A stretch of DNA of 18,265 bases from a virus (taxonomy: Duplodnaviria; Heunggongvirae; Uroviricota; Caudoviricetes). The first letter of the stretch is position 1; every line of letters begins with the position of its first letter. The notes under the pieces were generated by a model, which was given only the letters and a program-made list of their open reading frames with translations, searched no databases and was not told the origin of the DNA. This document shows, in pieces, positions 700 to 17,032 of this stretch. A program made the translations under genes and the position numbers. The stretch lies in IMG/VR virus record IMGVR_UViG_2541047922_000008. One strand, written 5' to 3'.

Positions 700-1014
700 T
701 CACGATAGTTCCGTTTTGTTGAATTCAATTATATCAAGGTCAGAACTTTCGTAATCCTTACCGAATAAAGCAAAACATATCGCGTCAAGTTCTCTCTTAT
801 GTTTGGACGCCCGATCATAATTACCACCCCAACAGCAAATGAATCCACCAAGTACTGCTGATTCAAAAAGTAATGATGCTGCATCAATATGTCTGAACCA
901 GGAGTCTATAAGTAAAGCAGAGAGTGATATTAATGTTCCCCACCCGCCAATCCTTCTCCATTTCTCAGCTTCATATTTAAGAGAAGCAATATATTCAATT
1001 TTATCTCTCGTCAT
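700..1014 (-). CDS. small membrane protein, 104 aa, two predicted TM helices
   Basis: Hydrophobic stretches IGGWGTLISLSALLIDSWF and AASLLFESAVLGGFICCWGG. Its start overlaps the upstream stop as ATGA, with a GGTGGGGA SD. AT-rich relative to the upstream gene. Confidence 0.75.
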   Translation of the reverse strand: MTRDKIEYIASLKYEAEKWRRIGGWGTLISLSALLIDSWFRHIDAASLLFESAVLGGFICCWGGNYDRASKHKRELDAICFALFGKDYESSDLDIIEFNKTELS

Positions 1015-3770
1015 CAGTTCCCCACCGCCTTTCCAAAATCCGGTGCTCTACGTGGCGCAATAGCACCCGGTTCCCACCAACTCGTTATGTCGAACTCCCG
1101 TTGCGAGCGGTCCCTTACTCGATCATTGTAACCAGGGTTTGCCATCTCCTGAAGTTGTTGCAATATCAGGTGATTGGTTATCGCTTTCGCATACCACAGG
1201 TTTGCGAATGGGGTGATCATGCGGGCTGTTTTCAGTGCATCGGCACCGAATGATGTTTCTTCACCCTGTAGAGCCTTCTGTGGGTTAGTAATCAGTAATT
1301 TTGTTAACTGCTCTGCAAAGCTCAACACAGGGCCCCCCATAGTGGCACCGATGCTGGAGCCATATTGCGTATGGTCCTGGAAAATAAAATCACCGTAGAT
1401 ACCGAACGAACCACCTTTCAGTAAAGCCTGAACCCATGTGGTTGGTTTTGTCATATCCAGCGGATCATTACCATTTAACAAACTGTTCATCTGGATCGCA
1501 AACATACCAGCAAGAGTTGTTCCCCCGATATATGAGGCCAGAAATTTAATGGCCGGAACGGTGTCCAAATCCCGTGTTCTGTTAACAAGTTGCCGAAATC
1601 CAGCAAATGGGGTTGTTTTGAAGAGCATGAAGCTCTTCATTAACTCGCCAGCATCATCACGGGCATATGTATCAATACCCGTAGCGGTGGTCACAGCATT
1701 GGTCATCTCACCGTGCGTAATTCCCAGCAATTTCTGGGCTGCTTCAGCGCGTGCATTACGAATCATGCGCGTGATGGTCTGCTCAGCCTCAGCGTCGAAT
1801 GCTTCTTTCATCCGTTTCAGGCGTTCTGGAGGGAGATCTCCAAGGGCTGCCAGTGCCTTTTCACTCCCGGCACGAATCCGGGTAATACGGTCTGCCATAA
1901 TGTCGGCTATTACGTTATCGGGCACAGCGTAAATCGCGTCTGGCGTCATCCCCATATGCCCGGCAGTAGTCATCGGCCTGAGTTCTGCCGCTGCCATGAT
2001 GGCCCAGTCCTCATTGCTCCATCCCTTGTTAGCCAGAATGGTTTTATCGGTTCCTTTCATATCGTCCAGCGTCTTAAATTTTCTGGTCAGCTCGCCAATG
2101 TTTTTGTACATCAGGAGACCAAACGACGCTTTGTTTGCGCGGTCCATAGCGATCAGCCCGGACCACTTCAGTGTCTTCTCTGCGAACCAGCCAGTTATGC
2201 CGCGAGACAAGTCAAACCCGCCCATTTTCGAAACCACAGCAGCATGTGAATCCACCAGCAGACCGAGTTCAGCATTCGCCTTTTTGGCATCTCCACTAAA
2301 CAGGTTTTTGATAGTGTTAACGGAAAGCCGCATTCCACCACGGGTAAAGCCCAGCGCCTGCGCATTTGCCCGCATAATTGCCTGGTCGCTGGTTGCTGTC
2401 AGTACGCTGGTGCCAAGCATGGCGCTGGTCATCAGGTTACGCAGACCACCAACTGCTGAAGAGAACACACTCGATGAAGCGACACCATTTAGGCCAGCCA
2501 TTGAGTTGAACATACGGGCAACTAATTTGGCCTCATCCTCCATTTCTTTTTTGCGTTTCCCGCCTGTTACTGCGCGCTTATAGATGCGATCCAGTACCAG
2601 GGAAAAGTTTCTTTCGGCGTCCGGACCAAAGGCTTTAACGACGCCCAAATCCCTGGATGATGATTGCAGGTGCGACATCATCACCCCCACCAGCGGCTGC
2701 TGAGTGTATCGCTCCATATAGGCGAAGTGTGACTGCGCATCCTTGAACGCCATCACCCTGTGCTGAGAACCACGGCTCTTTATTCCTCCGGCTCCCATAA
2801 ATGTACCAGGCTCAATTTTGTTTGCCCCATCAGTGGCCTTCGTTTCAAAGATCGCTTCCAGTGCCTGACGGTACTCGACGTCATTCATAATGCTGCCGTC
2901 AGGATTAACGTAATTGCTGCGATCCTGCGTGTTGTAAGCGTCATCAACCCATTTCTGGCGGGCAAACTCAATCGGTGGCTGGCGACCTGAAAGACGTGCT
3001 GTAGCTTGCTCTGCCACTGGTAACGATGCCAGCCATTCTTCGCGCCCGGCATTGCGAATAAGGTCAGCATCATCCACATATGGCGTATGCCAGTCTTCTC
3101 GCAGGCCTATGTCAAAGCCATTGTCGTTCATCTCATGACGAACACGGCCTGTTACATCCTTCCAAATCTGTGCAATTTTCTTCGCCAGGGGATTCCCGGT
3201 ATCTTCGCCATATATTTCTTTCAGGATCTGGAGTTGTGCAGACTTTGCCGCCTGCCTGTCGAATACACTCCGAAACCGCTGCTCTCCAAGCGCCCTGCTC
3301 TGCTCGAAGAATTTGCGGACGTCATCACCTGCTTTTAGAAGTTCAGCACTGAGCTGACGGGACCAGTCCTGATATGCCCCAATTGCAAGCTCTTCAGCAG
3401 AAGTAACGGAGATATCAGCTTTGTCTCTCGATCGTCGGCCAGCAAAAATAAACTGCTGCAAATTAACAGGTGTCTGCTGATCAGGCGGGATGTTAGCATC
3501 GAGAGTGTCAGTAATTTTACTGATGGCGATCGCATTCTGGGCAACACGCTGTCTTTTCTTGTACACATCATGAACCACACGCTGGCGAACCAGTTCTGCA
3601 GCATCCATGTATGTTTGAGCATCAGGAATACCACTTTTGCCTTCCATTGCATTCTTTCTGTGCACTTGCCGCACAGCTTCTTTGATACGATCTTCGATAT
3701 TTTTCAGCTCATCAGCCTTTGGCTGGCGACCAAGTGTCTGCGCAATAGCTTCAACACATGCCTGTTTCAT
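1014..3770 (-). CDS. large protein (918 aa from ATG 3770) of unknown function, phage internal-virion/ejection-like
   Basis: Long ORF. I prefer ATG at 3768-3770 (GAGGA SD 7 nt upstream, TAATG overlap with the upstream stop) over the GTG at 3791 used by the track. Contains Gly-rich hydrophobic segments (SSVFSSAVGGLRNLMTSAMLGTSVLTA; GGTTLAGMFAIQ; KGGSFGIYGDFIF; ATMGGPVLSF) and long helical charged regions. No catalytic motif recognised. Confidence 0.85.
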   Translation of the reverse strand: MKQACVEAIAQTLGRQPKADELKNIEDRIKEAVRQVHRKNAMEGKSGIPDAQTYMDAAELVRQRVVHDVYKKRQRVAQNAIAISKITDTLDANIPPDQQTPVNLQQFIFAGRRSRDKADISVTSAEELAIGAYQDWSRQLSAELLKAGDDVRKFFEQSRALGEQRFRSVFDRQAAKSAQLQILKEIYGEDTGNPLAKKIAQIWKDVTGRVRHEMNDNGFDIGLREDWHTPYVDDADLIRNAGREEWLASLPVAEQATARLSGRQPPIEFARQKWVDDAYNTQDRSNYVNPDGSIMNDVEYRQALEAIFETKATDGANKIEPGTFMGAGGIKSRGSQHRVMAFKDAQSHFAYMERYTQQPLVGVMMSHLQSSSRDLGVVKAFGPDAERNFSLVLDRIYKRAVTGGKRKKEMEDEAKLVARMFNSMAGLNGVASSSVFSSAVGGLRNLMTSAMLGTSVLTATSDQAIMRANAQALGFTRGGMRLSVNTIKNLFSGDAKKANAELGLLVDSHAAVVSKMGGFDLSRGITGWFAEKTLKWSGLIAMDRANKASFGLLMYKNIGELTRKFKTLDDMKGTDKTILANKGWSNEDWAIMAAAELRPMTTAGHMGMTPDAIYAVPDNVIADIMADRITRIRAGSEKALAALGDLPPERLKRMKEAFDAEAEQTITRMIRNARAEAAQKLLGITHGEMTNAVTTATGIDTYARDDAGELMKSFMLFKTTPFAGFRQLVNRTRDLDTVPAIKFLASYIGGTTLAGMFAIQMNSLLNGNDPLDMTKPTTWVQALLKGGSFGIYGDFIFQDHTQYGSSIGATMGGPVLSFAEQLTKLLITNPQKALQGEETSFGADALKTARMITPFANLWYAKAITNHLILQQLQEMANPGYNDRVRDRSQREFDITSWWEPGAIAPRRAPDFGKAVGN

Positions 3771-5830
3771 TATGGGTTCCTCAAGAAGCACGCTGCCGCT
3801 ACAGAATAAACCTTCGATTCGTTCTGGACTGTCTTAATCTGTTCATCCAACTCAGCCAGGAGATCAGAAAGTTTTGTCGGGTTTCCGGTTTCCGGGTGAG
3901 CTATAGTCAGCTCAGGATTGGCAACAGCCATGTCCCTAGCAGCCATAAGGTCATAGCTGTTGGATGAGAGAACCTGCCCTGTATCTGGATCAACGCTGAC
4001 GTCCCCTCTGTGTTCACCAGCCGATGAGAAAGCACTTTCAGCACGAGGGACAGGCGATTCACTAATTGGCTCTGATGATGTTTCATATCTGACACCATTT
4101 TCTTCAAAAACCTTTTGTATTTCATGGTATTGCTCTTGGTAAGTATCAGATATATCTGATCGCAATGGACCATCAAGCCCTCGCGCCATCCCCCCAACAT
4201 TTACAGGCTGACCATCATTAAGTTGCCTGTATGCTTCATCCATGGCGTCAACATGGCTGTTGATGCTCTCATTGCTGGTGTGAAGCACTGGTGACGATTC
4301 AATATCGTAATGAAGCCCCTCATTCAAAATGTGGGCTGCATCAATATCGCTTGGTTTTATTCTTTCCCTCGCCCGGATACCAAAAACTTTTTCTACTGCG
4401 GCTTCCAGTTTCATATTGCGAAGACGCATACTTACGAGTAACCGTAACTGCTCAGGTGTAACGGTTCCAACCTGAATACCACTGTATCTGAATATATAGG
4501 CTTTAAAACCTGAAATAATTTTTTCCCATGATGAAACGCTTGTCTTTAGAGATGGATTTACTGCATGTGCGGCAACTTCTTCAGCGTACAACCACTCAGG
4601 ATATGTTTCAGGGTACTCACCCCTTTTCTTATATTCATAATATTGTGACATCCCATATGCAAATTCAGGATAGTCAGAATGCTTGTTTGCAGATTTAAGT
4701 ACAGCATTAGCTAGCTTTCTGGCCTTCCAGTCAGGGTAATGGCGCTGCTCAAGATGAAGCGCCTCGTGATGAAGGGTTTCTAACAGTTCTTCATGGTCTT
4801 TTAATCCATTAATATTTATTCTTATTATTGGTTCTTTTCCAGAAGCTACTGTCACATGACCTTTATTCAGAAGTATTTCTCCATCACTATTTTTTATTGC
4901 TGGTTCATTAATAAGTTCTATTACTCCTGAATCAGATAAATCACGAACCATTGACTCAATGTTACCATCAGGAGATTGCTGATAATGTTCACCAAAAGTT
5001 GATTTTATTTCTTCTGCAGAAATGTTCGACTCTGTACCATCATGGTTATTATGGGTAGTCAGGTGATGAACGCCACCAAAGACCCCGCCTAAAACGGCAT
5101 CGACTAACATCGCCTGACCGTCAAATACCCGGTACTGTTTTGCCATCTCCGTGTAGCCTTTTTCCTCCAGTGTTGCGCCGACAGAGTAACGGTTCAGTCC
5201 ACCGAATCCGGTGTTGATTGCCACACCTGAGGCAATGCGCGTTGCCAGTGTGGTGCCGACGGCAGCGGGTAAGGCCATACCCACAGCATTGAAAAGGCTT
5301 TGCTGCGTTGCCAGGTTACGCGCCGTAGCCTCGTCTACTCCCTTCCCTTTAAAATCCTGATAGGACTGCTCATACGTAGAACTGAAAGCTGTAGCAGCGC
5401 CGATGAGGGGACCGCCAAACATAGTTGTTCCGATTGCAGGAACAAATTTACCAAGCTCATTTAATACCTCAGCCGCCATTCCCTGACTGCCTGCATCAGG
5501 CTTCACATAGCTGCGGGCATCCTGTAACTGTTTTCCGATCGTGTCGTATGTATCATTCAGTGTTTTGTCAGCATCAGGGAACATCTCCCGAAAAATATTA
5601 ACAGTCGGTGCCACGTCTGCGGTAAATGCCGGATCGCTAATCAGGCGCTTGCTGAATCCGACGGCAGACTGCGCGAGACCGAGAGTCCCCTCCGCCACGC
5701 CGCTCAAAAGTGCAGTACCTGAACCCTGGAAGGGAGTCGGATCGTAGTCTTCTGGCCTTGCTGGGTTGGCAACTGTTTTGTCGTCAATCCATGCCTGACC
5801 TTCTGGAGCCAAAGAAAAAACATCAGACAT
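3770..5830 (-). CDS. large protein (686 aa) with Gly-rich hydrophobic N-terminal third and a central HEXXH (zincin-like) region
   Basis: Long ORF. GAGGG SD 7 nt upstream and a TAATG overlap with the 843-aa gene stop. N-terminal segments PAIGTTMFGGPLIGAATAF, NAVGMALPAAVGTTLATRIASGVAINTGFGG and VDAVLGGVFGGV. HEALH at residues 355-359. Confidence 0.85.
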   Translation of the reverse strand: MSDVFSLAPEGQAWIDDKTVANPARPEDYDPTPFQGSGTALLSGVAEGTLGLAQSAVGFSKRLISDPAFTADVAPTVNIFREMFPDADKTLNDTYDTIGKQLQDARSYVKPDAGSQGMAAEVLNELGKFVPAIGTTMFGGPLIGAATAFSSTYEQSYQDFKGKGVDEATARNLATQQSLFNAVGMALPAAVGTTLATRIASGVAINTGFGGLNRYSVGATLEEKGYTEMAKQYRVFDGQAMLVDAVLGGVFGGVHHLTTHNNHDGTESNISAEEIKSTFGEHYQQSPDGNIESMVRDLSDSGVIELINEPAIKNSDGEILLNKGHVTVASGKEPIIRININGLKDHEELLETLHHEALHLEQRHYPDWKARKLANAVLKSANKHSDYPEFAYGMSQYYEYKKRGEYPETYPEWLYAEEVAAHAVNPSLKTSVSSWEKIISGFKAYIFRYSGIQVGTVTPEQLRLLVSMRLRNMKLEAAVEKVFGIRARERIKPSDIDAAHILNEGLHYDIESSPVLHTSNESINSHVDAMDEAYRQLNDGQPVNVGGMARGLDGPLRSDISDTYQEQYHEIQKVFEENGVRYETSSEPISESPVPRAESAFSSAGEHRGDVSVDPDTGQVLSSNSYDLMAARDMAVANPELTIAHPETGNPTKLSDLLAELDEQIKTVQNESKVYSVAAACFLRNP
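4754..4768 (-). other. HEXXH motif (HEALH) of the 686-aa protein
   Basis: The reverse complement of 4754-4768 is CAC GAG GCG CTT CAT = H E A L H, in the context LETLHHEALHLEQRH. The motif alone does not prove a metallopeptidase. Confidence 0.55.
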
Positions 5831-8361
5831 TATTCAACCCTCACGACAATAGCTTCATTGGTTCTGGGATCTGTTGCCCAGCGTCCGCTACCATTTACCA
5901 GCCGATACCGGTTATTGCCGATATTAACTGGTGTGAAGTTTGACACTGCATTTACGTTAAGTCCGGCTTCTTTCAGTGCTTGTTTCGCAGATGTGGTATA
6001 GCGATCTTTGAAAGTAGATTTATCCATGCCGAAAGGCATTACAACGTCGCCGCCATTAAAATCCTTGTATATACCGCCAGTAGCATACTTCACGGCATCA
6101 GCAACAGTGTCTGTATCAGGCATACTGGTTCTTACCGTAGATGCATCACCTGATTGATAAGCTATTCCTGCGTAAGCGGCTTTGAAAAGGCTATAACTGA
6201 TCTGACGTAACTGCGGGTTACGGGCAAATGCGTTACCTACCTGTTTGTCGAAAGCGTCTTTCATCTTATCTTCGCTCGGCAACTGTACCGGAGTTATGCC
6301 CGCATTCTTCATGGCCTTCGTCGGATTCAGTAGTTGGTCACCGGAAAGAATAACCTTTGCAACGTCGTACTTGTTCATCGTCGGCTTATACCCGATGAAC
6401 TGACTATATGGGATCGACGGTCTGGTGTTATCGTACTGATTATCCGGCGTGCCCAGCAGCAGCGCAGAATAGGCTGTTGCCGCACTGTTCGGAGCAATTA
6501 CAGATGCCACCTGCCGTATTGCTGGCGCAGGCAGCTTCTCCCCCATGCTCTGCAACAGTTTAATTGTCTGGTCAACGTTCTGAGTGCCGCGCACCTGCTG
6601 TGCCAGCGCAGCCGCCTCTTCACTGTTGAGGATTGGGGCATTAATTCCCAACGCGCGTAAGCTTTCCTGCGACGAGAAACGGTTAGCCACCTCGGCAGTG
6701 ATGTCGTCAGGGTTGTTGCTGGTGATCGGCTTATAGGCTCCGATTTCCACCGCTGCACTAAACGGATTATTCTGCCTCTGGGTTATTACCTTCGTGGCTG
6801 CCGCCGATACCCGGTCGAATAACTCCGCACGAGACGCATACCCCTCCCCTGTCTCACCAGTATCCGGGCGTAATTGCTCAACATATGCGGTAATGCTGCT
6901 TGTCGGCATGTTGCGGAAAGAGCCTATATACTGTCCGGCGATCTGCAAATTTCTGAACTCGGTATATCGCAGGTTTCCTTCTCTGACACCATAAGCAGCA
7001 ATGAACTCACCCTCACCAGGCGGGTTAGGAAATTCAACGCCACGCATATACGCAGCCGTTGCATCGCGAACCCGGCTTTCGAGCATCGTTCTATATTCAG
7101 CCTGCTGCTGTCTGGCTAATGCATCCGTCTGTCGCAACACGCTGGCCTGATCTGATTCACTTAAAGCATCGAACCAAGCTACACCGGTATAACGTTTATT
7201 TTTTGTCGGTAGCTGAGAAAGCCCCAGTGCGGCACTAACGCCAGCGGCCAATTGCTGATCACTGTACGGCTGACTGCCTTGCTCATGATGAATAATTGCT
7301 TTGCACAGAGATTTCAGTGTGTCAGGATTTGATGCGTCAAGCGGCTGGTCAGGAGTTACACCGAGCTGAGCACATACTGCCCGTATATAAGCATCAGTTT
7401 TATTATCATCACTGGCCGGTGCCCAGCGATTAATTATTTCGCTGATGGTGTCATAACCCTGACGCTGATACGACAGCAAATTGCGACCAAGCGCGCGAAT
7501 ACCGTGTTCAGGGGTTTCGAATTTGGCAAAGCGACCATCATCACCAGTCTGCCCAACCCACGGATTAGTTTTGCTGTATTCAAGATTGCCGGGGTTATTG
7601 TTGCGTATACCGCGGGTACGATCGGAAGAGCCACTATCTGCTACAGCACGGCGAGATCCAGCAGCAGTATCGCTTAACTCGCCGTTTTGCTGTCTTACCT
7701 GAAGATAGTTTGCTCCAATAGCATTTTGAGCAGTTGCTTTTGCTGTTGCTTCTTTAAACTCGATTTTCTTGGCCTGGATTTGCTCGTCGCTCCAGCCATG
7801 CGCAATACCGTAATCCTCAATTTGCTGGAAAGTTTGCGTATTAGCCAATATGTATGCTGCGTTGTCGCCATATAATGCTGAGGCATTTTTACCATTATTC
7901 AGCAGTGTCGCCTGAAACTGGCCTTCTTCGTAGGCATTTATTTGCCCTATCTCGTACCTCCCGGCCTGCGTAGCGAACTGAATACGCTGCTGCTGCGCCT
8001 GCTGCATGAAAGCATTACGAGCCTGTTCATCCGGCAGCGACATAGCCAGTTGTTCGATCTGAGCATCAAACTGCTGTGTATACTCATGGCCTTTTCCAAT
8101 AGCATTTTTCCCTTTCAGGTTAAGCAATCCTGTTTCAGGATTATTCAGCAGATCACTGCCTGTCTGACTGAGTTTAAGGGATGCCTCCTGAACCAAGGCA
8201 ATATTGGCGCGCTGTTTTGCCTGACCAAGAACATCAATTGCCTCTGTCCCTGCCCGAACAAAAGCATCACCAATACCTGGCTGAGAAAACGTCTGCAAGC
8301 CTGCTGACTGAACTCCACGGCTCTCAACCTGGCGTCCGGATACTGTTGGTACGACTGGCAT
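5830..8361 (-). CDS. large protein (843 aa) with a central RNNNPGN-type domain, phage virion-associated cell-wall-hydrolase-like
   Basis: Long ORF with AGGGGG SD. The N-terminus is Q/A-rich and helical (MPVVPTVSGRQVESRGVQSAGLQTF...). Residues ~250-372 read RGIRNNNPGNLEYSKTNPWVGQTGDDGRFAKFETPEHGIRALGRNLLSYQRQGYDTISEIINRWAP. I recall this pattern from phage structural or putative muramidase proteins (memory, unverified). Confidence 0.85.
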   Translation of the reverse strand: MPVVPTVSGRQVESRGVQSAGLQTFSQPGIGDAFVRAGTEAIDVLGQAKQRANIALVQEASLKLSQTGSDLLNNPETGLLNLKGKNAIGKGHEYTQQFDAQIEQLAMSLPDEQARNAFMQQAQQQRIQFATQAGRYEIGQINAYEEGQFQATLLNNGKNASALYGDNAAYILANTQTFQQIEDYGIAHGWSDEQIQAKKIEFKEATAKATAQNAIGANYLQVRQQNGELSDTAAGSRRAVADSGSSDRTRGIRNNNPGNLEYSKTNPWVGQTGDDGRFAKFETPEHGIRALGRNLLSYQRQGYDTISEIINRWAPASDDNKTDAYIRAVCAQLGVTPDQPLDASNPDTLKSLCKAIIHHEQGSQPYSDQQLAAGVSAALGLSQLPTKNKRYTGVAWFDALSESDQASVLRQTDALARQQQAEYRTMLESRVRDATAAYMRGVEFPNPPGEGEFIAAYGVREGNLRYTEFRNLQIAGQYIGSFRNMPTSSITAYVEQLRPDTGETGEGYASRAELFDRVSAAATKVITQRQNNPFSAAVEIGAYKPITSNNPDDITAEVANRFSSQESLRALGINAPILNSEEAAALAQQVRGTQNVDQTIKLLQSMGEKLPAPAIRQVASVIAPNSAATAYSALLLGTPDNQYDNTRPSIPYSQFIGYKPTMNKYDVAKVILSGDQLLNPTKAMKNAGITPVQLPSEDKMKDAFDKQVGNAFARNPQLRQISYSLFKAAYAGIAYQSGDASTVRTSMPDTDTVADAVKYATGGIYKDFNGGDVVMPFGMDKSTFKDRYTTSAKQALKEAGLNVNAVSNFTPVNIGNNRYRLVNGSGRWATDPRTNEAIVVRVE
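7246..7614 (-). other. RNNNPGN-containing conserved domain inside the 843-aa protein
   Basis: The reverse complement of 7585-7605 is CGC AAC AAT AAC CCC GGC AAT = R N N N P G N. Domain limits were estimated by eye. Confidence 0.5.
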
Positions 8362-8420
8362 CAGTAACCCCCTGTTTTGAATCGTGTACCAGAATTCATA
8401 AAACCTGATTTAAATAACAT
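8361..8420 (-). CDS. 19-aa upstream ORF (MLFKSGFMNSGTRFKTGGY) coupled to the 843-aa gene
   Basis: GGAGGG SD 6 nt upstream of ATG (8418-8420). Its TGA stop overlaps the ATG of the 843-aa gene (TGATG). Too short to judge coding by composition. Confidence 0.25.
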   Translation of the reverse strand: MLFKSGFMNSGTRFKTGGY

Positions 8421-8457
8421 TGGCGTCCCTCCGCTTTGATGCTGTACCAGCGATTCA

Positions 8458-8664
8458 TTACTCACCCCCCGATGCAAAACCATTCTGATTAAGCCAGGCG
8501 TTTACGGCATGTCTGACAATCTGCGCCACGCCTGGTAATGGCTGATCAGGGTGATTGTTCACATGGTCGATTCTGTACTGCTTAAGGCGCATCACGGTCT
8601 GTGCATCCAGATGAACGGAACCACCTCTGACATCGCCTGTGTTCAGGTCGTTAATACAATTCAC
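8458..8664 (-). CDS. small ribbon-helix-helix-like DNA-binding protein, 68 aa, GTG start
   Basis: AAGAGGA SD 7 nt upstream of the GTG. The pattern SVHLDAQTVMRLKQY (strand + helix) followed by GVAQIVRHAVNAWL (helix) is RHH-like. First gene of the cassette, preceded by ~100 bp of AT-rich DNA. Confidence 0.65.
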   Translation of the reverse strand: MNCINDLNTGDVRGGSVHLDAQTVMRLKQYRIDHVNNHPDQPLPGVAQIVRHAVNAWLNQNGFASGGE

Positions 8665-9030: not shown

Positions 9031-9447
9031 TTAGCCTCCGACTCTTCCGTAGTGCTGTTCTGGTGGATTCACATAGCCCCTTTCTTGCAGGTATTCGCGA
9101 ATATCAGACATCAGGAGACGGTTAACCGTGCTCTTGTCTTTTCTCCGGTAAAGGCGTCTGGTGATCATGAAGTAGTTAGCAATGATCTCCGGTATATCCC
9201 TGACGCTGATACATGCTGTATGCTGGTCAATAGCTTCAATCATCTCTTCACGAGTTACAAAAGTCTGGCGTAAACGAGTGATCACACCATGTACATCTGA
9301 ATGATCATTTATACGCTTATTTTGGCGCTTCGCGCTCTCGACTGTGACACTGACAACAATGTCAACTCTTTGTTTTTCCGCAATTTCATCCACAATGTGA
9401 TCACCTGCACGGCGACCATGTGCGTGATCATTTCTTACTATTTCCAT
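9031..9447 (-). CDS. hypothetical protein, 138 aa
   Basis: ORF co-oriented with the operon, overlapping the proQ/finO-like stop by 20 nt. No family recognised. Confidence 0.65.
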
Positions 9448-9925
9448 TCATCTCCTCCAGTAGTTTTCCTGCGTGCGTCTGTTGTAGTGGTGTTACCTCG
9501 CCGCACGGCTGGCCTTTCAGGTCGTAACGCGCGCCACCAGCTACCAGGGCGCGGTAATAGCGCGGAGTCTGCACATAACGCGCCAGCGTTGCGCGTAGTG
9601 TTCCCTGTCCGAGTGAAATACCTCTCGCGGCAATATCCTGTATCAGGTCGTCAAATATCCCCACCTTAAGCGGCTTAGGTGATTCCGGGCTGAATAATTC
9701 AGGCCATAGCTCAATAAGACGGTTAACGCGTCTGCGGTTTTTACGCTGCTGTTTGGTCATACGCCGCCGCGGTGTTGCTCCTGTGAGCTTCTGCTGTGTG
9801 TTCTGGTTATCTGGCATCACTTTATGCGCCGATGTGGTTTTATTCTGCTGCTGCGCCGCCTGTGCTGTTTTCTGCGGCGTGCCGTAAATGCCCTTCGGTT
9901 TTCTGTTTATGGTCAGCTTTGTCAT
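9428..9925 (-). CDS. ProQ/FinO-domain RNA-binding protein, 165 aa
   Basis: Basic N-terminus followed by [29 protein letters not shown]...[35 protein letters not shown], the characteristic FinO/ProQ domain pattern. GGGGAAGG SD. Confidence 0.85.
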
Positions 9926-13025: not shown

Positions 13026-13283
13026 TTATTTCCCGGTATGGGGTTCTTCTTTATATTTATGGGCTAACAAATCTGGTAATTGCCTGTATTTATCCTCGGC
13101 AATATATTCAGAATAATCGACAGCACTGTTCAGTATATCTAACGCCGTTTCATGCTCCAGATTCGAAACTATAAGGAACGTTGCTACTTTTAGCATATTC
13201 GCGATATGCAAAAGAGCATCAATTTCATTTTTTGGCGCTTCACTGAATTTTTGCTCCAGAAGAATAAATCGTTCATCACGCAT
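13026..13283 (-). CDS. hypothetical protein, 85 aa, AT-rich
   Basis: AGGGGGA SD. Its start overlaps the Icd-like stop (ATGCGTGA). No family recognised. Confidence 0.6.
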   Translation of the reverse strand: MRDERFILLEQKFSEAPKNEIDALLHIANMLKVATFLIVSNLEHETALDILNSAVDYSEYIAEDKYRQLPDLLAHKYKEEPHTGK

Positions 13284-13479
13284 AGTATTCCCCCTGACGG
13301 ATGCGGGCAGTAAATACCATCACGCAGCCAGTCGGGGATTGCTGACGGGCTTCCTGTTCGCTGGCGGCCTCGATGTGTATTACGCGTGGTTGTGCGGTGC
13401 TCAGGGCGATAAAACGCCAGATGTATTTATTCAGGTTGTGCGAGTCCCGCCCTTGCGGGTGTGTGGTATGATTTAACAT
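13276..13479 (-). CDS. icd: Icd-like (host cell division inhibitor family) small protein, 67 aa
   Basis: Internal ATG (13477-13479) of the spurious 396-aa track ORF, with a GAGGT SD. The sequence MLNHTTHPQGRDSHNLNKYIWRFIALSTAQPRVIHIEAASEQEARQQSPTGCVMVFTARIRQGEYYA has the Y-I-W-x-F ... SE-x-EAR ... F-x-AR pattern I associate with Icd-like proteins of P4-like elements (memory). Confidence 0.65.
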   Translation of the reverse strand: MLNHTTHPQGRDSHNLNKYIWRFIALSTAQPRVIHIEAASEQEARQQSPTGCVMVFTARIRQGEYYA

Positions 13480-13484
13480 AGCTA

Positions 13485-13582
13485 CCTCGATACGCTTTCT
13501 ATCGTTGGTGGTTAGACGCCCTGCATGTGTTGCGAGCACTGCGGGGCGTTGCTTAATTTGAGCAATGCAACCCAAACTGTGC
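13485..13582 (-). ncRNA. structured leader, candidate C4/CI/IsrK-type antisense immunity RNA
   Basis: ~100-nt leader between the predicted start site and icd. A 9-bp stem with one mismatch and a 14-nt loop spans 13517-13548. A 5-bp hairpin at 13488-13504 abuts the SD. In P1 and P4-like elements a C4/CI RNA precedes icd. No covariance-model search was possible. Confidence 0.35.
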
Positions 13583-13588
13583 GCACAG

Positions 13589-13616
13589 ATTAAAATCATG
13601 TGTGCGCACATGTCAA
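13589..13616 (-). promoter_or_regulatory. strong sigma70-like promoter of the icd-primase operon
   Basis: Minus strand reads TTGACA (13616-13611), 16-nt spacer, TTTAAT (13594-13589). Confidence 0.6.
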
Positions 13617-13619
13617 TAC

Positions 13620-13648
13620 TTAACTTCTCACTTTTTTTGCTGTATTGT
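13620..13648 (+). promoter_or_regulatory. candidate promoter of the + strand RHH gene
   Basis: TTAACT (13620-13625), 17-nt spacer, TATTGT (13643-13648). Back-to-back with the minus-strand promoter. Confidence 0.4.
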
Positions 13649-13684
13649 GTGCGCCCATCAAATCCATTTAAGTGAGGTGTACCA

Positions 13685-13882
13685 ATGTCTAGCGGAAACA
13701 CAAACAACAAATCAGCAAAGAAAAATATTCGATTCCCGCACGAGCTTATAGATGGGATTGATGCCAGTGTTGAACAAGAAAAATTAACTAATCCTAGTGC
13801 TAATTTTTCCGCATGGGTCTTAGATGCCTGTGGACGCAAATTAAAATATGAACAGCGCCGGAAGGCCAAAGAGCAGGAGTAA
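13685..13882 (+). CDS. small RHH-type regulator (YlcI/YnfO-DUF3950-like), 65 aa; likely repressor acting at the TGTGCGCACA sites
   Basis: GAGGTG SD 5 nt upstream. KNIRFPHELIDGIDASV (strand + helix) and NFSAWVLDACGRKL (helix) fit an RHH fold. Divergent from the operator-bearing promoter. Confidence 0.65.
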   Translation: MSSGNTNNKSAKKNIRFPHELIDGIDASVEQEKLTNPSANFSAWVLDACGRKLKYEQRRKAKEQE

Positions 13883-13909
13883 CCATCACCAGCGCCGTGG
13901 TGCGGTGAA

Positions 13910-13922
13910 CTGTGGCGCACAG
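13910..13922. promoter_or_regulatory. fourth operator-like site (CTGTGgCGCACAG)
   Basis: Same sequence as the 13577-13588 palindrome with one inserted G. Located between the two small + strand ORFs. Confidence 0.4.
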
Positions 13923-13939
13923 GGTTACAGGTATCTACG

Positions 13940-14137
13940 ATGACTGACAAATCATTAAAGAAATTATCCTCATCCAGGAAAAAACAACGCAAAAATGCGG
14001 TAAGCGAACAAGAACAGGAAAGATTTGCGCCATGTGCGTTTGTCCTTGAGAAGTTCTTAAAAGAGTACAGGCGCACAAAAATGGAATCGCATACCTGGAA
14101 AACATCGCAGTATGGCGATGCTAAAGAGCAGGAATAG
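13940..14137 (+). CDS. possible small basic protein, 65 aa
   Basis: ORF with a weak SD, ending with the same AKEQE-stop as the upstream gene. A + strand terminator follows at 14228. Confidence 0.35.
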   Translation: MTDKSLKKLSSSRKKQRKNAVSEQEQERFAPCAFVLEKFLKEYRRTKMESHTWKTSQYGDAKEQE

Positions 14138-14227
14138 CCCACCAGCAAGCCAGCACACTGATCACATTGCCCACCAGCCGCAAATCTGGCATTGTTGGCG
14201 ATGCGTTTGATTTCCTTTGTTCCCACT

Positions 14228-14256
14228 GGCGACCTATCCCGGTCGCCTTTGTTTTG
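14228..14256 (+). terminator. rho-independent terminator of the + strand small-gene unit
   Basis: ggcgacc-tatccc-ggtcgcc followed by tttgttttg. Confidence 0.7.
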
Positions 14257-14305
14257 CCTGTTATCCAGCAACGGGGCGCTTTTTCTTTCTGTAACGTTCG
14301 GATCG

Positions 14306-14863
14306 TTACACATTGCTTTCACCCTCCAGAAAATCAGGCTGATATTTACGCCATAGCGCCCGCTCTTCTCGTTCCAGTGCATCTTTTGCCTCTTTGCATT
14401 GCTGTAACCTGTAACCGCGTTTGCTGGCTTCCTGTTGATATGCAGCCTGACGTTTACTGAAATCATTCAGCATGGCAAACGGAACACCATAACCCCCCGT
14501 TTTGCGGATTGAAGGAATCACCTCGCGGAATACCCAGTTACTGAAACGGTGCGCAAATGTGCCTGGTGTGGAAGCTTTACGGCTGCGGGCGATCAGTTTG
14601 TAGAAACCTGATTCAGAGACAACATTCCAGCTTCTGGCACCACCACGCTTACCGGAATGACCCTCGGTTAAAGCTAGGGTCATTACCTCATCGTTATCCA
14701 GAACTGAAACGGCATCAGTAACATTGCTGATTTCCAGCGCGGCACACACATCAGCGCCAACAAACCACGGCTCGCCGTTGATACTCACTATGCGCACCTG
14801 AATGTCATCGAATTTAATGACAGAGATTTCAGTGCGACCAGCATAAAAGACAGGTTTACGCAT
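14306..14863 (-). CDS. Bro-N domain protein (prophage antirepressor family), 185 aa
   Basis: IKFDDIQVRIVSINGEPWFVGADVCAALEISNVTDAVSVLDNDE matches the Bro-N pattern. 8-nt overlap with the upstream gene. Confidence 0.85.
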   Translation of the reverse strand: MRKPVFYAGRTEISVIKFDDIQVRIVSINGEPWFVGADVCAALEISNVTDAVSVLDNDEVMTLALTEGHSGKRGGARSWNVVSESGFYKLIARSRKASTPGTFAHRFSNWVFREVIPSIRKTGGYGVPFAMLNDFSKRQAAYQQEASKRGYRLQQCKEAKDALEREERALWRKYQPDFLEGESNV

Positions 14864-15656
14864 GGCTGCTCACCTCCATGCGGCGGGCTAACCAGCGTTG
14901 CGAAAGGCGAATTAATTCAGCTTTCCGCTGGTGGTAGTCCAGGCCTAACTCAATCAGCGTGATATTGCTCTGCTCAAGGTAAGAAAGGTGCTCAAGCTGC
15001 AACACGCTCATGTGGTCGCGTGGTTCACCTGTGATGCCGTTCGCCTGCGCCCACTGTTTTGCAGTCATGCCACCCAGCACGATACGCGCCAGCATATTAG
15101 CTTCCGTAGTGTAGTGGTGCTGGAGCGTGTTTTTACCCAGTTCAGCCCGGTACGCCTCCAGCGCGGCACACATTGGCTTAAAGTAGCTGGCTACGGTGAT
15201 ACGGGCTTTCAGTTCCCGGCGTAACGCTGCGGAACGTACAGGCGCTACCTTGTGTAGCTCCTCCTCGCATTTGATGAAGTACTGACGAACGGCGCGGCCC
15301 TGTTCGGTGCGTTCGATCATTGCCAGTTCTTTCGCCATATTCAGGGTGAGTAAGTAATCATGAGCAAGCTGCTGGCGAGATTTTGCGCTCGCCGAATTGG
15401 GTGAGGTCAAATATTTGACGACTTCAAAATCTACTCCCTTTTTAAATCCATACTCCTCAATGCGCCCTTTAATCCAATTGGTGAAATCACGGCCTACCCC
15501 GAGCGCATTATGCAACGTTCTAGCGCTAACAATATTGGTTTCACGCCCGCCAATAACGCCGGAAATAACCGGGATAATTTCGCCAAAATTTTGCAGATTC
15601 TGGTTTTCAGGCCGAACGAAGCCCTGCCCCTGTACGGGCGTTTTTCGCAGTTTCAT
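14856..15656 (-). CDS. AntA/AntB-type antirepressor-family protein, 266 aa
   Basis: VSARTLHNALGVGRDFTNWIKGRIEEYGFKKGVDFEV ... DYLLTLNMAKELAMIERTEQGRAVRQYFIKCEE is the AntA N-terminal domain pattern. Confidence 0.85.
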   Translation of the reverse strand: MKLRKTPVQGQGFVRPENQNLQNFGEIIPVISGVIGGRETNIVSARTLHNALGVGRDFTNWIKGRIEEYGFKKGVDFEVVKYLTSPNSASAKSRQQLAHDYLLTLNMAKELAMIERTEQGRAVRQYFIKCEEELHKVAPVRSAALRRELKARITVASYFKPMCAALEAYRAELGKNTLQHHYTTEANMLARIVLGGMTAKQWAQANGITGEPRDHMSVLQLEHLSYLEQSNITLIELGLDYHQRKAELIRLSQRWLARRMEVSSHA

Positions 15657-16928: not shown

Positions 16929-17032
16929 ACCTCAGCGTCCTCTACTGTAGTGGCTGTGCCAGCCCGTCGAGGTATACGGTTTTTCGGGAGCGACCCTAGA
17001 CACAGCCTTTTCTTTCGTCGCTCAAAGTCTAC

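Follow-up and report, generated by a model that had tools for sequence, protein, structure and literature searches.

Which signals hold the replication operon of an integrative satellite in check? The question is raised by a short divergent region of IMG/VR virus record IMGVR_UViG_2541047922_000008 (Caudoviricetes), an 18,265-nucleotide (nt) DNA that we call the window and whose coordinates we use throughout. There, an icd-like gene that opens a leftward primase operon stands back to back with ylcI, a small rightward gene. A first-pass annotation of the letters had read this region as a compact divergent switch in which a gene of the ribbon-helix-helix (RHH) type faces a palindrome-gated promoter, and both our comparative data and a fold model support this. 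What we propose is a control in two layers, which we consider fairly probable: YlcI would act as an RHH repressor on the promoter, and a cis-antisense RNA of ~80 nt would act over the icd ribosome site.

We compared 135 loci taken from complete Escherichia coli genomes, from one capsid-forming phage-inducible chromosomal island (cf-PICI) deposited as a phage, and from IMG/VR contigs collected by a pattern scan. A scan of genome contigs with an Icd alignment had given just one locus (Edwardsiella), and the relatives were thus taken from these other sources. The loci, cited by L numbers where needed, provide 86 distinct related control (upstream) regions and 82 hairpin variants. The argument about the RNA turns on the following features (aa, amino acids; SD, Shine-Dalgarno sequence):

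13276-13479, minus strand: icd-like gene of 67 aa, first gene of its operon, with ATG at 13479 and SD GAGGU at 13484-13488
13480-13582, minus strand: icd mRNA 5' leader of ~100 nt, from its fold
13555-13578, minus strand: 5' hairpin of the leader, which varies between relatives
13426-13477, plus strand: candidate antisense promoter region, with an extended -10, TGgTATGAT, at 13464-13472, inside icd codons 3-6
13478-13559, plus strand: candidate cis-antisense RNA of ~80 nt, complementary to the icd start codon, SD and leader
13479-13514, plus strand: 5' stem-loop of the candidate RNA (outer stem 13479-13486/13507-13514, inner stem 13488-13492/13500-13504, loop 13493-13499)
13515-13559, plus strand: terminator-like hairpin (13515-13550) and U-rich tail to 13559

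On which strand does the conserved structure live? The first-pass annotation had placed a strong hairpin at 13517-13548 in the leader. The hairpin is present, at 13515-13550; its supposed 14-nt loop is a 7-nt loop closed by three more pairs, and the sense leader folds only moderately better than its shuffles (z = -2.06). By comparison, the plus-strand RNA 13478-13562 folds as a 5' stem-loop followed by a terminator-like hairpin with -38 kcal/mol and z = -4.63, and none of 200 shuffles is as good. The hairpin is more stable on the plus strand in every one of the 82 variants (mean -24.6 versus -17.2 kcal/mol). On the plus strand 98.2% of its pair cells are standard, versus 83.4% on the icd-sense strand, with 159 G-U cells versus 3; in fact, 91% of the sense-strand mismatches (16.6% of cells) are A-C or C-A, which read as G-U wobbles on the other strand. 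The U-rich sequence after the hairpin follows the same strand: the 12 nt behind GGG[CU] include 7.0 U on average on the plus strand, versus 1.0 in 10 nt on the sense strand. Distinct hairpin sequences number 45, and 6 of the 13 pairs change on both sides (74 cells), which none of 500 shuffles reproduces and no slid control approaches.

The smaller hairpin at 13488-13504, already noticed beside the icd SD, is present as well, and it forms the inner stem and loop of the 5' stem-loop. In the main class (n=55) the pair cells of this stem-loop are standard at 99.6% on the plus strand versus 82.9% on the sense strand. The 55 sequences keep their stems invariant while carrying 14 different apical loops, and L085 shows one compensatory change from A-U to C-G. 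The leader sequence CUAACCACC, which is invariant (part of it was fixed by the collection pattern), reads GGUGGUUAG on the plus strand, and GGUGGUUAG pairs, with two G-U, to the complement of the SD/AUG region. The 5' hairpin of the leader behaves differently from these two: its strand test favours sense in 41 cases and antisense in 22, with no consistent preference, and L135 carries a G-U to A-U change in it.

With as many as 6 places in a single genome, the block that reaches from icd codon 18 through the large hairpin is present in 1,575 of the 5,426 complete E. coli genomes. Similarity stops near 13546-13559 in most of them, at or just past the hairpin, and near 13521 in a subset. Model R1, built from the 82 seed sequences, scores 92.4 bits at a single site of the window, has no match in P4, and recovers L005 (62.8 bits) and L106 (36.8 bits), two relatives that had no part in the seed. 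The cf-PICI vB_KppS-Ant (L013) carries the same switch and the same RNA. The candidate RNA family has no Rfam match on either strand, and neither an antisense RNA at icd nor the repressor/operator module is described in the searchable literature. These comparisons support the view that the selected fold is that of the strand opposite to the leader; a new cis-antisense RNA of ~80 nt is probably what explains the conserved structure best.

From where would such an RNA start? The extended -10 TGgTATGAT lies inside the icd coding sequence, and its start point would fall opposite the icd ATG. Synonymous diversity in icd is 0.006 over codons 2-8 versus 0.10 over codons 9-63. The amino acid changes that do occur (R2L, H4Y, H4N, T5I, T6I/R) spare -15T, -14G, -12T, -11A and -7T, and H4Y creates TATAAT. 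Of 14 divergent icd N-terminal classes, 12 have a TAnnnT hexamer in this position. In L008 and L012, identity to the window ends exactly at icd nt 54, that is at 13426, and the block is kept from 13426 to ~13553. What is retained there is a complete small unit of predicted promoter, RNA and terminator, though the icd open reading frame (ORF) has been destroyed.

Within the same promoter region, a GC hairpin or palindrome, CCCGC-CCTT-GCGGG, occupies 13446-13459 in icd codons 7-12. It shows zero synonymous variation among 51 coding variants and, counted on the candidate antisense promoter, spans about -33 to -20.

The repressor layer is proposed from the DNA on the other side of the leader, where promoter, palindromes and the divergent gene are packed together (no strand is given for palindromes):

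13611-13616, minus strand: -35 TTGACA of the icd promoter (P_icd), read from the sequence
13587-13594, minus strand: -10 region of P_icd, either TTTAAT at 13589-13594 (16-bp spacer) or, by analogy with relatives, TAATCT at 13587-13592 (18-bp spacer)
13601-13610: operator O1, perfect palindrome TGTGCGCACA, in the promoter spacer and abutting the -35
13577-13588: operator O2, perfect 12-bp palindrome CTGTGCGCACAG, covering the predicted start site and the edge of the -10, its centre 23 bp from O1
13648-13657: operator O3, TGTGCGCCCA, a 9/10 copy that overlaps the -10/+1 of the putative ylcI promoter
13910-13922: 13-bp palindrome CTGTGGCGCACAG, operator-like with one extra base
13620-13648, plus strand: putative ylcI promoter TTAACT-17-TATTGT, matching 8/12 of the consensus and below the scan threshold, a weak inference
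13685-13882, plus strand: ylcI/ynfO-family (DUF3950) gene of 65 aa, candidate RHH repressor

Both hexamers of the minus-strand TTGACA-16-TTTAAT promoter proposed in the first-pass annotation are there; near-consensus is too generous a term. A two-hexamer consensus scan of 13200-14400 calls zero promoters on either strand; P_icd escapes it for want of an A at the second position of its -10, TTTAAT. Relatives have TAnnnT at 17-18 bp from the -35, from which the -10 may be TAATCT at 13587-13592, and TTGACA or TTGACG occupies the same -35 place in 64 of the 86 control regions. The perfect 10-bp palindrome in the spacer and its 12-bp version over the predicted +1 were correctly described. Together they give two exact copies of the 10-mer TGTGCGCACA in the window, 23 bp apart, where 0.04 are expected; two or more copies appear in just 1 of 200 shuffles. 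What had been called a half-site at the divergent -10/+1 is rather a 9/10 copy, and with its flanks O3 matches O1 at 12 of 13 bases. L135 and L024, whose repressor is that of the window, have O1, O2 and O3 unchanged amid flanking bases that differ. The one-base-insertion copy at 13910-13922 exists too, yet it is not kept in L135 and L024 despite the same repressor and the same O1-O3, and it is probably a chance, non-functional palindrome.

All 86 control regions share one layout, with two inverted-repeat copies flanking the -10 and a small divergent ORF, and the repeat sequence itself differs between them. The YlcI/DUF3950-type relatives that were read for it have a third copy, situated at the divergent promoter or slightly upstream. 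The sequence of the repeat goes with the protein: the 12 nt after the -35 agree within one mismatch in 86% of locus pairs whose repressor N-termini are at least 90% identical, in 1.9% of pairs at 50-90% identity, and in 0% below 50%. At least five types of the divergent protein occur among the relatives; the operator pair of the cf-PICI L013 is GTGTACCCCCAC. Members of the YlcI family vary most in the N-terminal arm, which immediately precedes the conserved IRFPHE. YlcI scores 59 bits with NF041551 (cut-off 30) and 28.3 bits with PF13132 (cut-off 25), and its fold model has the RHH arrangement of an N-terminal strand followed by two helices in a domain of ~45 residues. Taken with the fold model, the comparisons make a candidate RHH repressor with cognate operators well supported. 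Binding of YlcI to these operators is predicted from their covariation with the protein and their conservation in relatives; nothing on YlcI function is found in the searchable literature, by name or by sequence string.

Two observations on this promoter deserve mention. In L069, an IMG/VR contig whose repressor is of the window's type (its first 30 residues differ at two), the 23 bp that separate O1 from O2 have been lost and the -10 with them, as if by deletion from one repeat to the other. In L003, L007, L015, L029, L034 and others, the divergent RHH gene starts with ATGTCAA, the reverse complement of the -35 TTGACAT. Thus, the mRNA of these genes must start within the opposing promoter and may be leaderless.

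We envision that the two layers work as follows. YlcI dimers on O1 and O2 would occlude P_icd and turn off the leftward operon (leader, icd, orf85, DUF4222, primase-helicase, SSB, ProQ/FinO), while YlcI at O3 would autoregulate ylcI. Each relative has its own repressor/operator pair, and the repressor layer would therefore define immunity types. From the extended -10 in icd codons 3-6, the plus-strand unit would produce an RNA running from 13478 to ~13559 which, being cis-encoded, would match the start codon, SD and leader of icd with perfect complementarity. By pairing there, it would prevent translation of icd, and since the downstream ORFs overlap, the primase genes would be silenced too, by lost coupling, polarity or duplex cleavage. 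Further steps are speculative. The promoters face each other ~100 bp apart and might interfere transcriptionally; after induction, the antisense RNA might act as a dosage-dependent brake on replication or copy number; the diversity of apical loops might avoid cross-talk between co-resident satellites; and the island's ProQ/FinO protein may assist, though a homologue is found in just 12 of 135 loci.

A bolder extension, to which we give somewhat less than even credence, is that the window exemplifies a very widespread, unannotated family of ~80-nt cis-antisense RNAs in enterobacterial PICIs, cf-PICIs and P4-like satellites, placed over the ribosome site of the gene that opens the replication operon. 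Such an RNA, with its invariant stems and hypervariable apical loop, would be a plasmid-like countertranscript that sets quiescence, copy number and incompatibility between satellites beside interchangeable RHH cassettes, independently of AlpA.

Several points weigh against the two-layer proposal. The antisense RNA, its start and its termination are candidates read from the sequence. The putative promoter lacks a -35 and escapes the consensus scan, and the low synonymous diversity reaches to about codon 25, beyond what the -10 alone explains. The U tract of the window, GUUGCUUAAUUU, is interrupted, and a few distant relatives have poor tracts; termination may therefore be partial, with read-through into ylcI. 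A simple terminator scan did not list the GC-rich hairpin at 13515-13550 with its interrupted tract. The 82 hairpin sequences are interrelated, and the invariance of the GGGCNTCTRACCA...AACG segment carries no weight because the collection pattern fixed it. As to the repressor, its co-variation with the operators may partly be linkage because the two are adjacent DNA, and the published model of Gram-negative PICIs has AlpA, not a repressor, at the head of the cascade (PMC11773190).

Could the leader itself be the regulator? According to this idea, the leader would be a sense-strand RNA of the c4/CI kind, processed from the operon transcript and acting, in cis or in trans, on target boxes near the icd ribosome site, and the first-pass annotation had likened the region to c4-icd-ant of P1 and CI of P4. 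The position is equivalent: the leader 13480-13582 lies upstream of an icd-like ORF on the same transcript, as expected of a C4 RNA, and it does form hairpins. In P4 the C4/CI RNA is likewise followed by an ORF (ATG near 8365) that is icd-like by eye only (cf. L005), without an Icd-family model or alignment. Membership in the c4/CI/IsrK families did not survive comparison. A cmscan of 13200-14300 on both strands at E<=10 gives no match to C4 (RF01695, cut-off 45 bits), isrK (RF01394, 50 bits) or c4-a1b1 (RF03163, 46.7 bits), the last of which leaves the leader without recognisable target boxes, and the whole window has no C4 or isrK match at the gathering threshold. The library is sensitive, since the same models score 44-81 bits on P4 (C4 74.9, isrK 60.8, c4-a1b1 44.1 bits, just under its cut-off), on L008 (C4 75.8, isrK 81.4 bits) and on L012 (C4 75.4, isrK 61.8 bits). 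In L008 and L012 (2247-2540), the leader is followed by exactly 54 nt of icd, onto which an isrK-like RNA, a C4 RNA and a second, divergent icd-like gene have been joined. A true isrK-C4 pair thus lies downstream of the leader and 18 icd codons, and leader and C4 are not homologues. The mismatches in 16.6% of pair cells on the sense strand count against a sense-strand RNA too, the hairpin loop cannot be a conserved antisense box because it varies between relatives, and ARAGORN finds no tRNA-like element in the leader. Thus, the leader is not a c4/CI-type processed RNA and not a diverged C4, and of the alternatives weighed here a c4/CI-like mode of action is the one in which we place the least belief. 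What our proposal retains of the earlier reading is an RNA layer added to a protein layer, although the RNA, its strand and its mechanism would all be others.

Would the plus-strand signals be better explained in another way? The promoter inside icd might mainly be a second, long-leader promoter of ylcI, with the hairpin as an attenuator, after the manner of lambda P_RE, which runs antisense through cro into cI. ylcI does lie on the same strand, 125 bp past the hairpin, its local promoter is weak (8/12), and the U tract of the window is interrupted. We nevertheless find this unlikely. In most relatives the hairpin has a stable, GC-rich stem with U-rich sequence behind it; conservation mostly stops there or slightly farther on, whereas the repressor module on the far side changes freely between elements, and in some of these types an ATG overlaps the P_icd -35. 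Read-through would also have to cross repressor-occupied O2 and O1. It is quite improbable, in our view, that there is no RNA layer at all, and that the conserved stretch, from the hairpin into icd as far as codon 18, represents a shared mosaic recombination junction with regulation left to the repressor (and AlpA) alone. The block is indeed a mosaic boundary of low overall diversity, yet it contains the 45 distinct hairpins, in which 6 of 13 pairs show compensatory changes and 98% of the cells still pair, though on one strand only. In icd codons 2-15, moreover, nonsynonymous change exceeds synonymous change, which argues for a nucleotide-level constraint rather than recent common ancestry. 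A still fainter chance goes to the strand-specific hairpin acting as single-stranded DNA (ssDNA), for instance in priming or initiation by the primase-helicase or as a signal for packaging or recombination. Genes for a primase-helicase and SSB are present on the element, and G-T pairs stabilise DNA hairpins as well, so that strand asymmetry alone cannot separate RNA from ssDNA. The hairpin is tied to icd, though, and not to the replicase type, which in relatives is DUF927, RepA-helicase or DNA-primase-family; a -10-like element at fixed distance and a T tract lie on the same strand; and the hairpin element overlaps the ribosome site of the first gene exactly.

A number of smaller candidates for the structure were tried and set aside. 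Weak Rfam hits (R1162 antisense RNA at 18.3 bits against a gathering score of 55, CRISPR-DR57, microRNA models) are far below threshold and due to chance. A tRNA-like minihelix or RNase P substrate fails, with CCA 5 nt past the helix and an empty ARAGORN result. A nut-like site, with the hairpin and GC(N)UCUAACCA compared by eye with boxB/boxA, matches rrn boxA at ~7 of 13 positions and misses the CUCUUU core. A CsrA site is suggested by a GGA motif in the loop of many variants, not all. An IHF or DnaA box in TCTAACCACCAACG is a poor match by eye, and the covariation favours a nucleic-acid fold over a protein site.

The icd gene itself needs a better start. Its product scores 68.6 bits with NCBIfam NF033153 over residues 19-62 (cut-off 25), with cell-division inhibition as candidate role. 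The SD GAGGU and the ATG at 13479 are as first described. RefSeq/PGAP instead gives a form of 111 aa, 13276-13611, whose start ATG lies inside O1/-35. Forms of 67-68 aa dominate among Icd homologues, in a database range of 52-118 aa that arises from the same misplacement of starts. By its homologues, then, the 67-aa Icd with its SD is the consistent form, and PGAP would extend icd over its own promoter. A 396-codon open frame at 13276-14466 on the minus strand is an artefact, Cys-rich and of low complexity, without a family match and antisense to two real genes.

Similar confusion surrounds the C4/CI RNA genes of relatives. Some related loci carry "Ash family protein" pseudogenes, and Pfam Phage_ASH (PF10554) matches the conceptual translation of C4/CI RNA DNA in P4 (L014, 8330-8521) and in L008 (2226-2741). 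In P4, Phage_ASH covers residues 22-85 of the old "cI protein", and the C4 model matches 8420-8507. Thus, what is annotated as "Ash family protein" is, at least in part, the translation of RNA genes. The L008/L012 mosaics also illustrate that both kinds of RNA element can share one operon.

What kind of element carries this switch? The window DNA occurs, identical, as a chromosomal island adjoining a tRNA-Gly gene in several E. coli strains, 82.0311 and FDAARGOS_1298 among them. Other carriers of a related locus include E. coli O157:H7 (beside roxA, as in L003) and O104:H4 2011C-3493 (L005). On the minus strand, a first block contains, in order, integrase, a 267-aa ORF, AlpA, AntA and BRO-N; after the control region follow the icd-like gene, an 85-aa ORF (orf85), DUF4222, the DUF927 primase-helicase, SSB and ProQ/FinO, then a PerC pseudogene and three large ORFs that match no family. 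Between both blocks lie two 65-aa plus-strand ORFs, the first of which is YlcI/YnfO. The remaining features are:

13940-14137, plus strand: second 65-aa ORF of the rightward operon, with a homologue in 53 of 135 loci
14228-14247, plus-strand operon: terminator-like hairpin after both 65-aa ORFs
14306-14863, minus strand: BRO-N, from a Pfam scan of the window ORFs
14856-15656, minus strand: AntA, from the same scan
16939-17006, minus strand: int-alpA RNA motif RF02996, 46.9 bits (gathering score 35.8), separating integrase from the 267-aa ORF that precedes alpA
9428-9925, minus strand: ProQ/FinO-family RNA-chaperone gene (PF04352, 84 bits), in the same operon as icd

AlpA (PF05930) scores 69 bits and DUF927 159 bits in the Pfam scan. 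The antirepressor genes AntA and BRO-N do lie in another operon, as had been stated. The second 65-aa ORF may be a diverged ylcI duplicate; it shares DNA repeats with both ends of ylcI (13707-13723/13947-13963 and 13865-13884/14120-14139).

There are no structural genes among the scanned window ORFs, no packaging gene is recognised in the window, and the P4 families Psu, Delta, Sid and Epsilon have no match among 17 window ORFs scanned with Pfam; blastn against phage records, P4 included, finds no DNA similarity to the window. What is found is an integrase beside tRNA-Gly, AlpA and a primase. The element, as known here from its genes, is a PICI-like integrative satellite at tRNA-Gly of E. coli. 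A gene set of this kind (integrase, AlpA, antirepressor, Ash/Icd, primase, PerC) has been reported for Gram-negative PICIs (PMC11773190, PMC13612085). At 700-8361 on the minus strand, four co-directional ORFs of 843, 686, 925 and 104 aa have abutting or overlapping ends and no match in Pfam or PADLOC; they are the island's cargo and could be an undescribed defence or accessory system.

Where has such a control been seen before? The immI region of P22, reportedly the work of Susskind and colleagues, comprises mnt, P_ant/O_mnt, arc, ant and sar RNA, with Mnt and Arc as RHH repressors. As proposed for the window, RHH repressors are combined with a palindromic operator over a strong promoter that faces the repressor's divergent promoter, and a small antisense RNA from inside the operon covers the ribosome site of the downstream gene. 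There is no sequence relationship, however: the target in the window would be the first, icd-like gene of a primase operon and not ant, the antisense promoter would lie inside the coding sequence of its target, and the antirepressor genes are in a separate operon.

Plasmids offer a further parallel. pMV158/pLS1 controls its copy number by CopG and RNAII, and pIP501 by CopR and RNAIII. They share with the scheme proposed for the window the dual control of a replication operon, an RHH protein on a promoter palindrome, a short countertranscript with a terminator hairpin that is complementary to the translation start, and a dosage-dependent logic. In contrast to these plasmids, the element here is chromosomal, integrative and satellite-like, its repressor gene is divergent and not the first of the operon, and its RNA family is unrelated, without an Rfam match on either strand. 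In F-like plasmids, FinP/FinO directs an ~80-nt antisense RNA with two stem-loops against the 5' untranslated region (UTR) and ribosome site of traJ, the first regulatory gene. The candidate RNA of the window has the same size and two stem-loops and lies over a 5' UTR and ribosome site, and the island encodes a ProQ/FinO protein; the candidate RNA has no Rfam FinP match, however, and because only 12 of 135 loci carry the FinO-family gene, that gene is not an obligatory partner.

With c4-icd-ant of P1 and CI of P4, the window shares an RNA element directly upstream of an icd-like ORF that heads an early operon, and a presumed action by RNA-level control of icd translation. Unlike here, the C4/CI RNA is a sense-strand RNA, processed from the transcript, that pairs with separate target boxes; in the window, the selected fold is on the opposite strand and none of RF01695, RF03163 and RF01394 matches. 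The Gram-negative PICIs EcCICFT073, EcCIEDL933 and EcCIMP1 resemble the element in gene set and chromosomal integration (PMC11773190, PMC13612085), whereas their published regulation centres on AlpA as master activator (PMC11773190).

If our reading is true, a repressor/operator cassette of many specificities and an antisense RNA would be two unrecognised control layers of satellites, which could explain immunity or incompatibility between satellites in one genome, where the block occupies up to 6 places; the RNA hypothesis is testable by one silent point mutation. By analogy, the control logic is probably that of P22 immI, of CopG/RNAII in pMV158 and of FinP/FinO, whereas the RNA itself is probably new.

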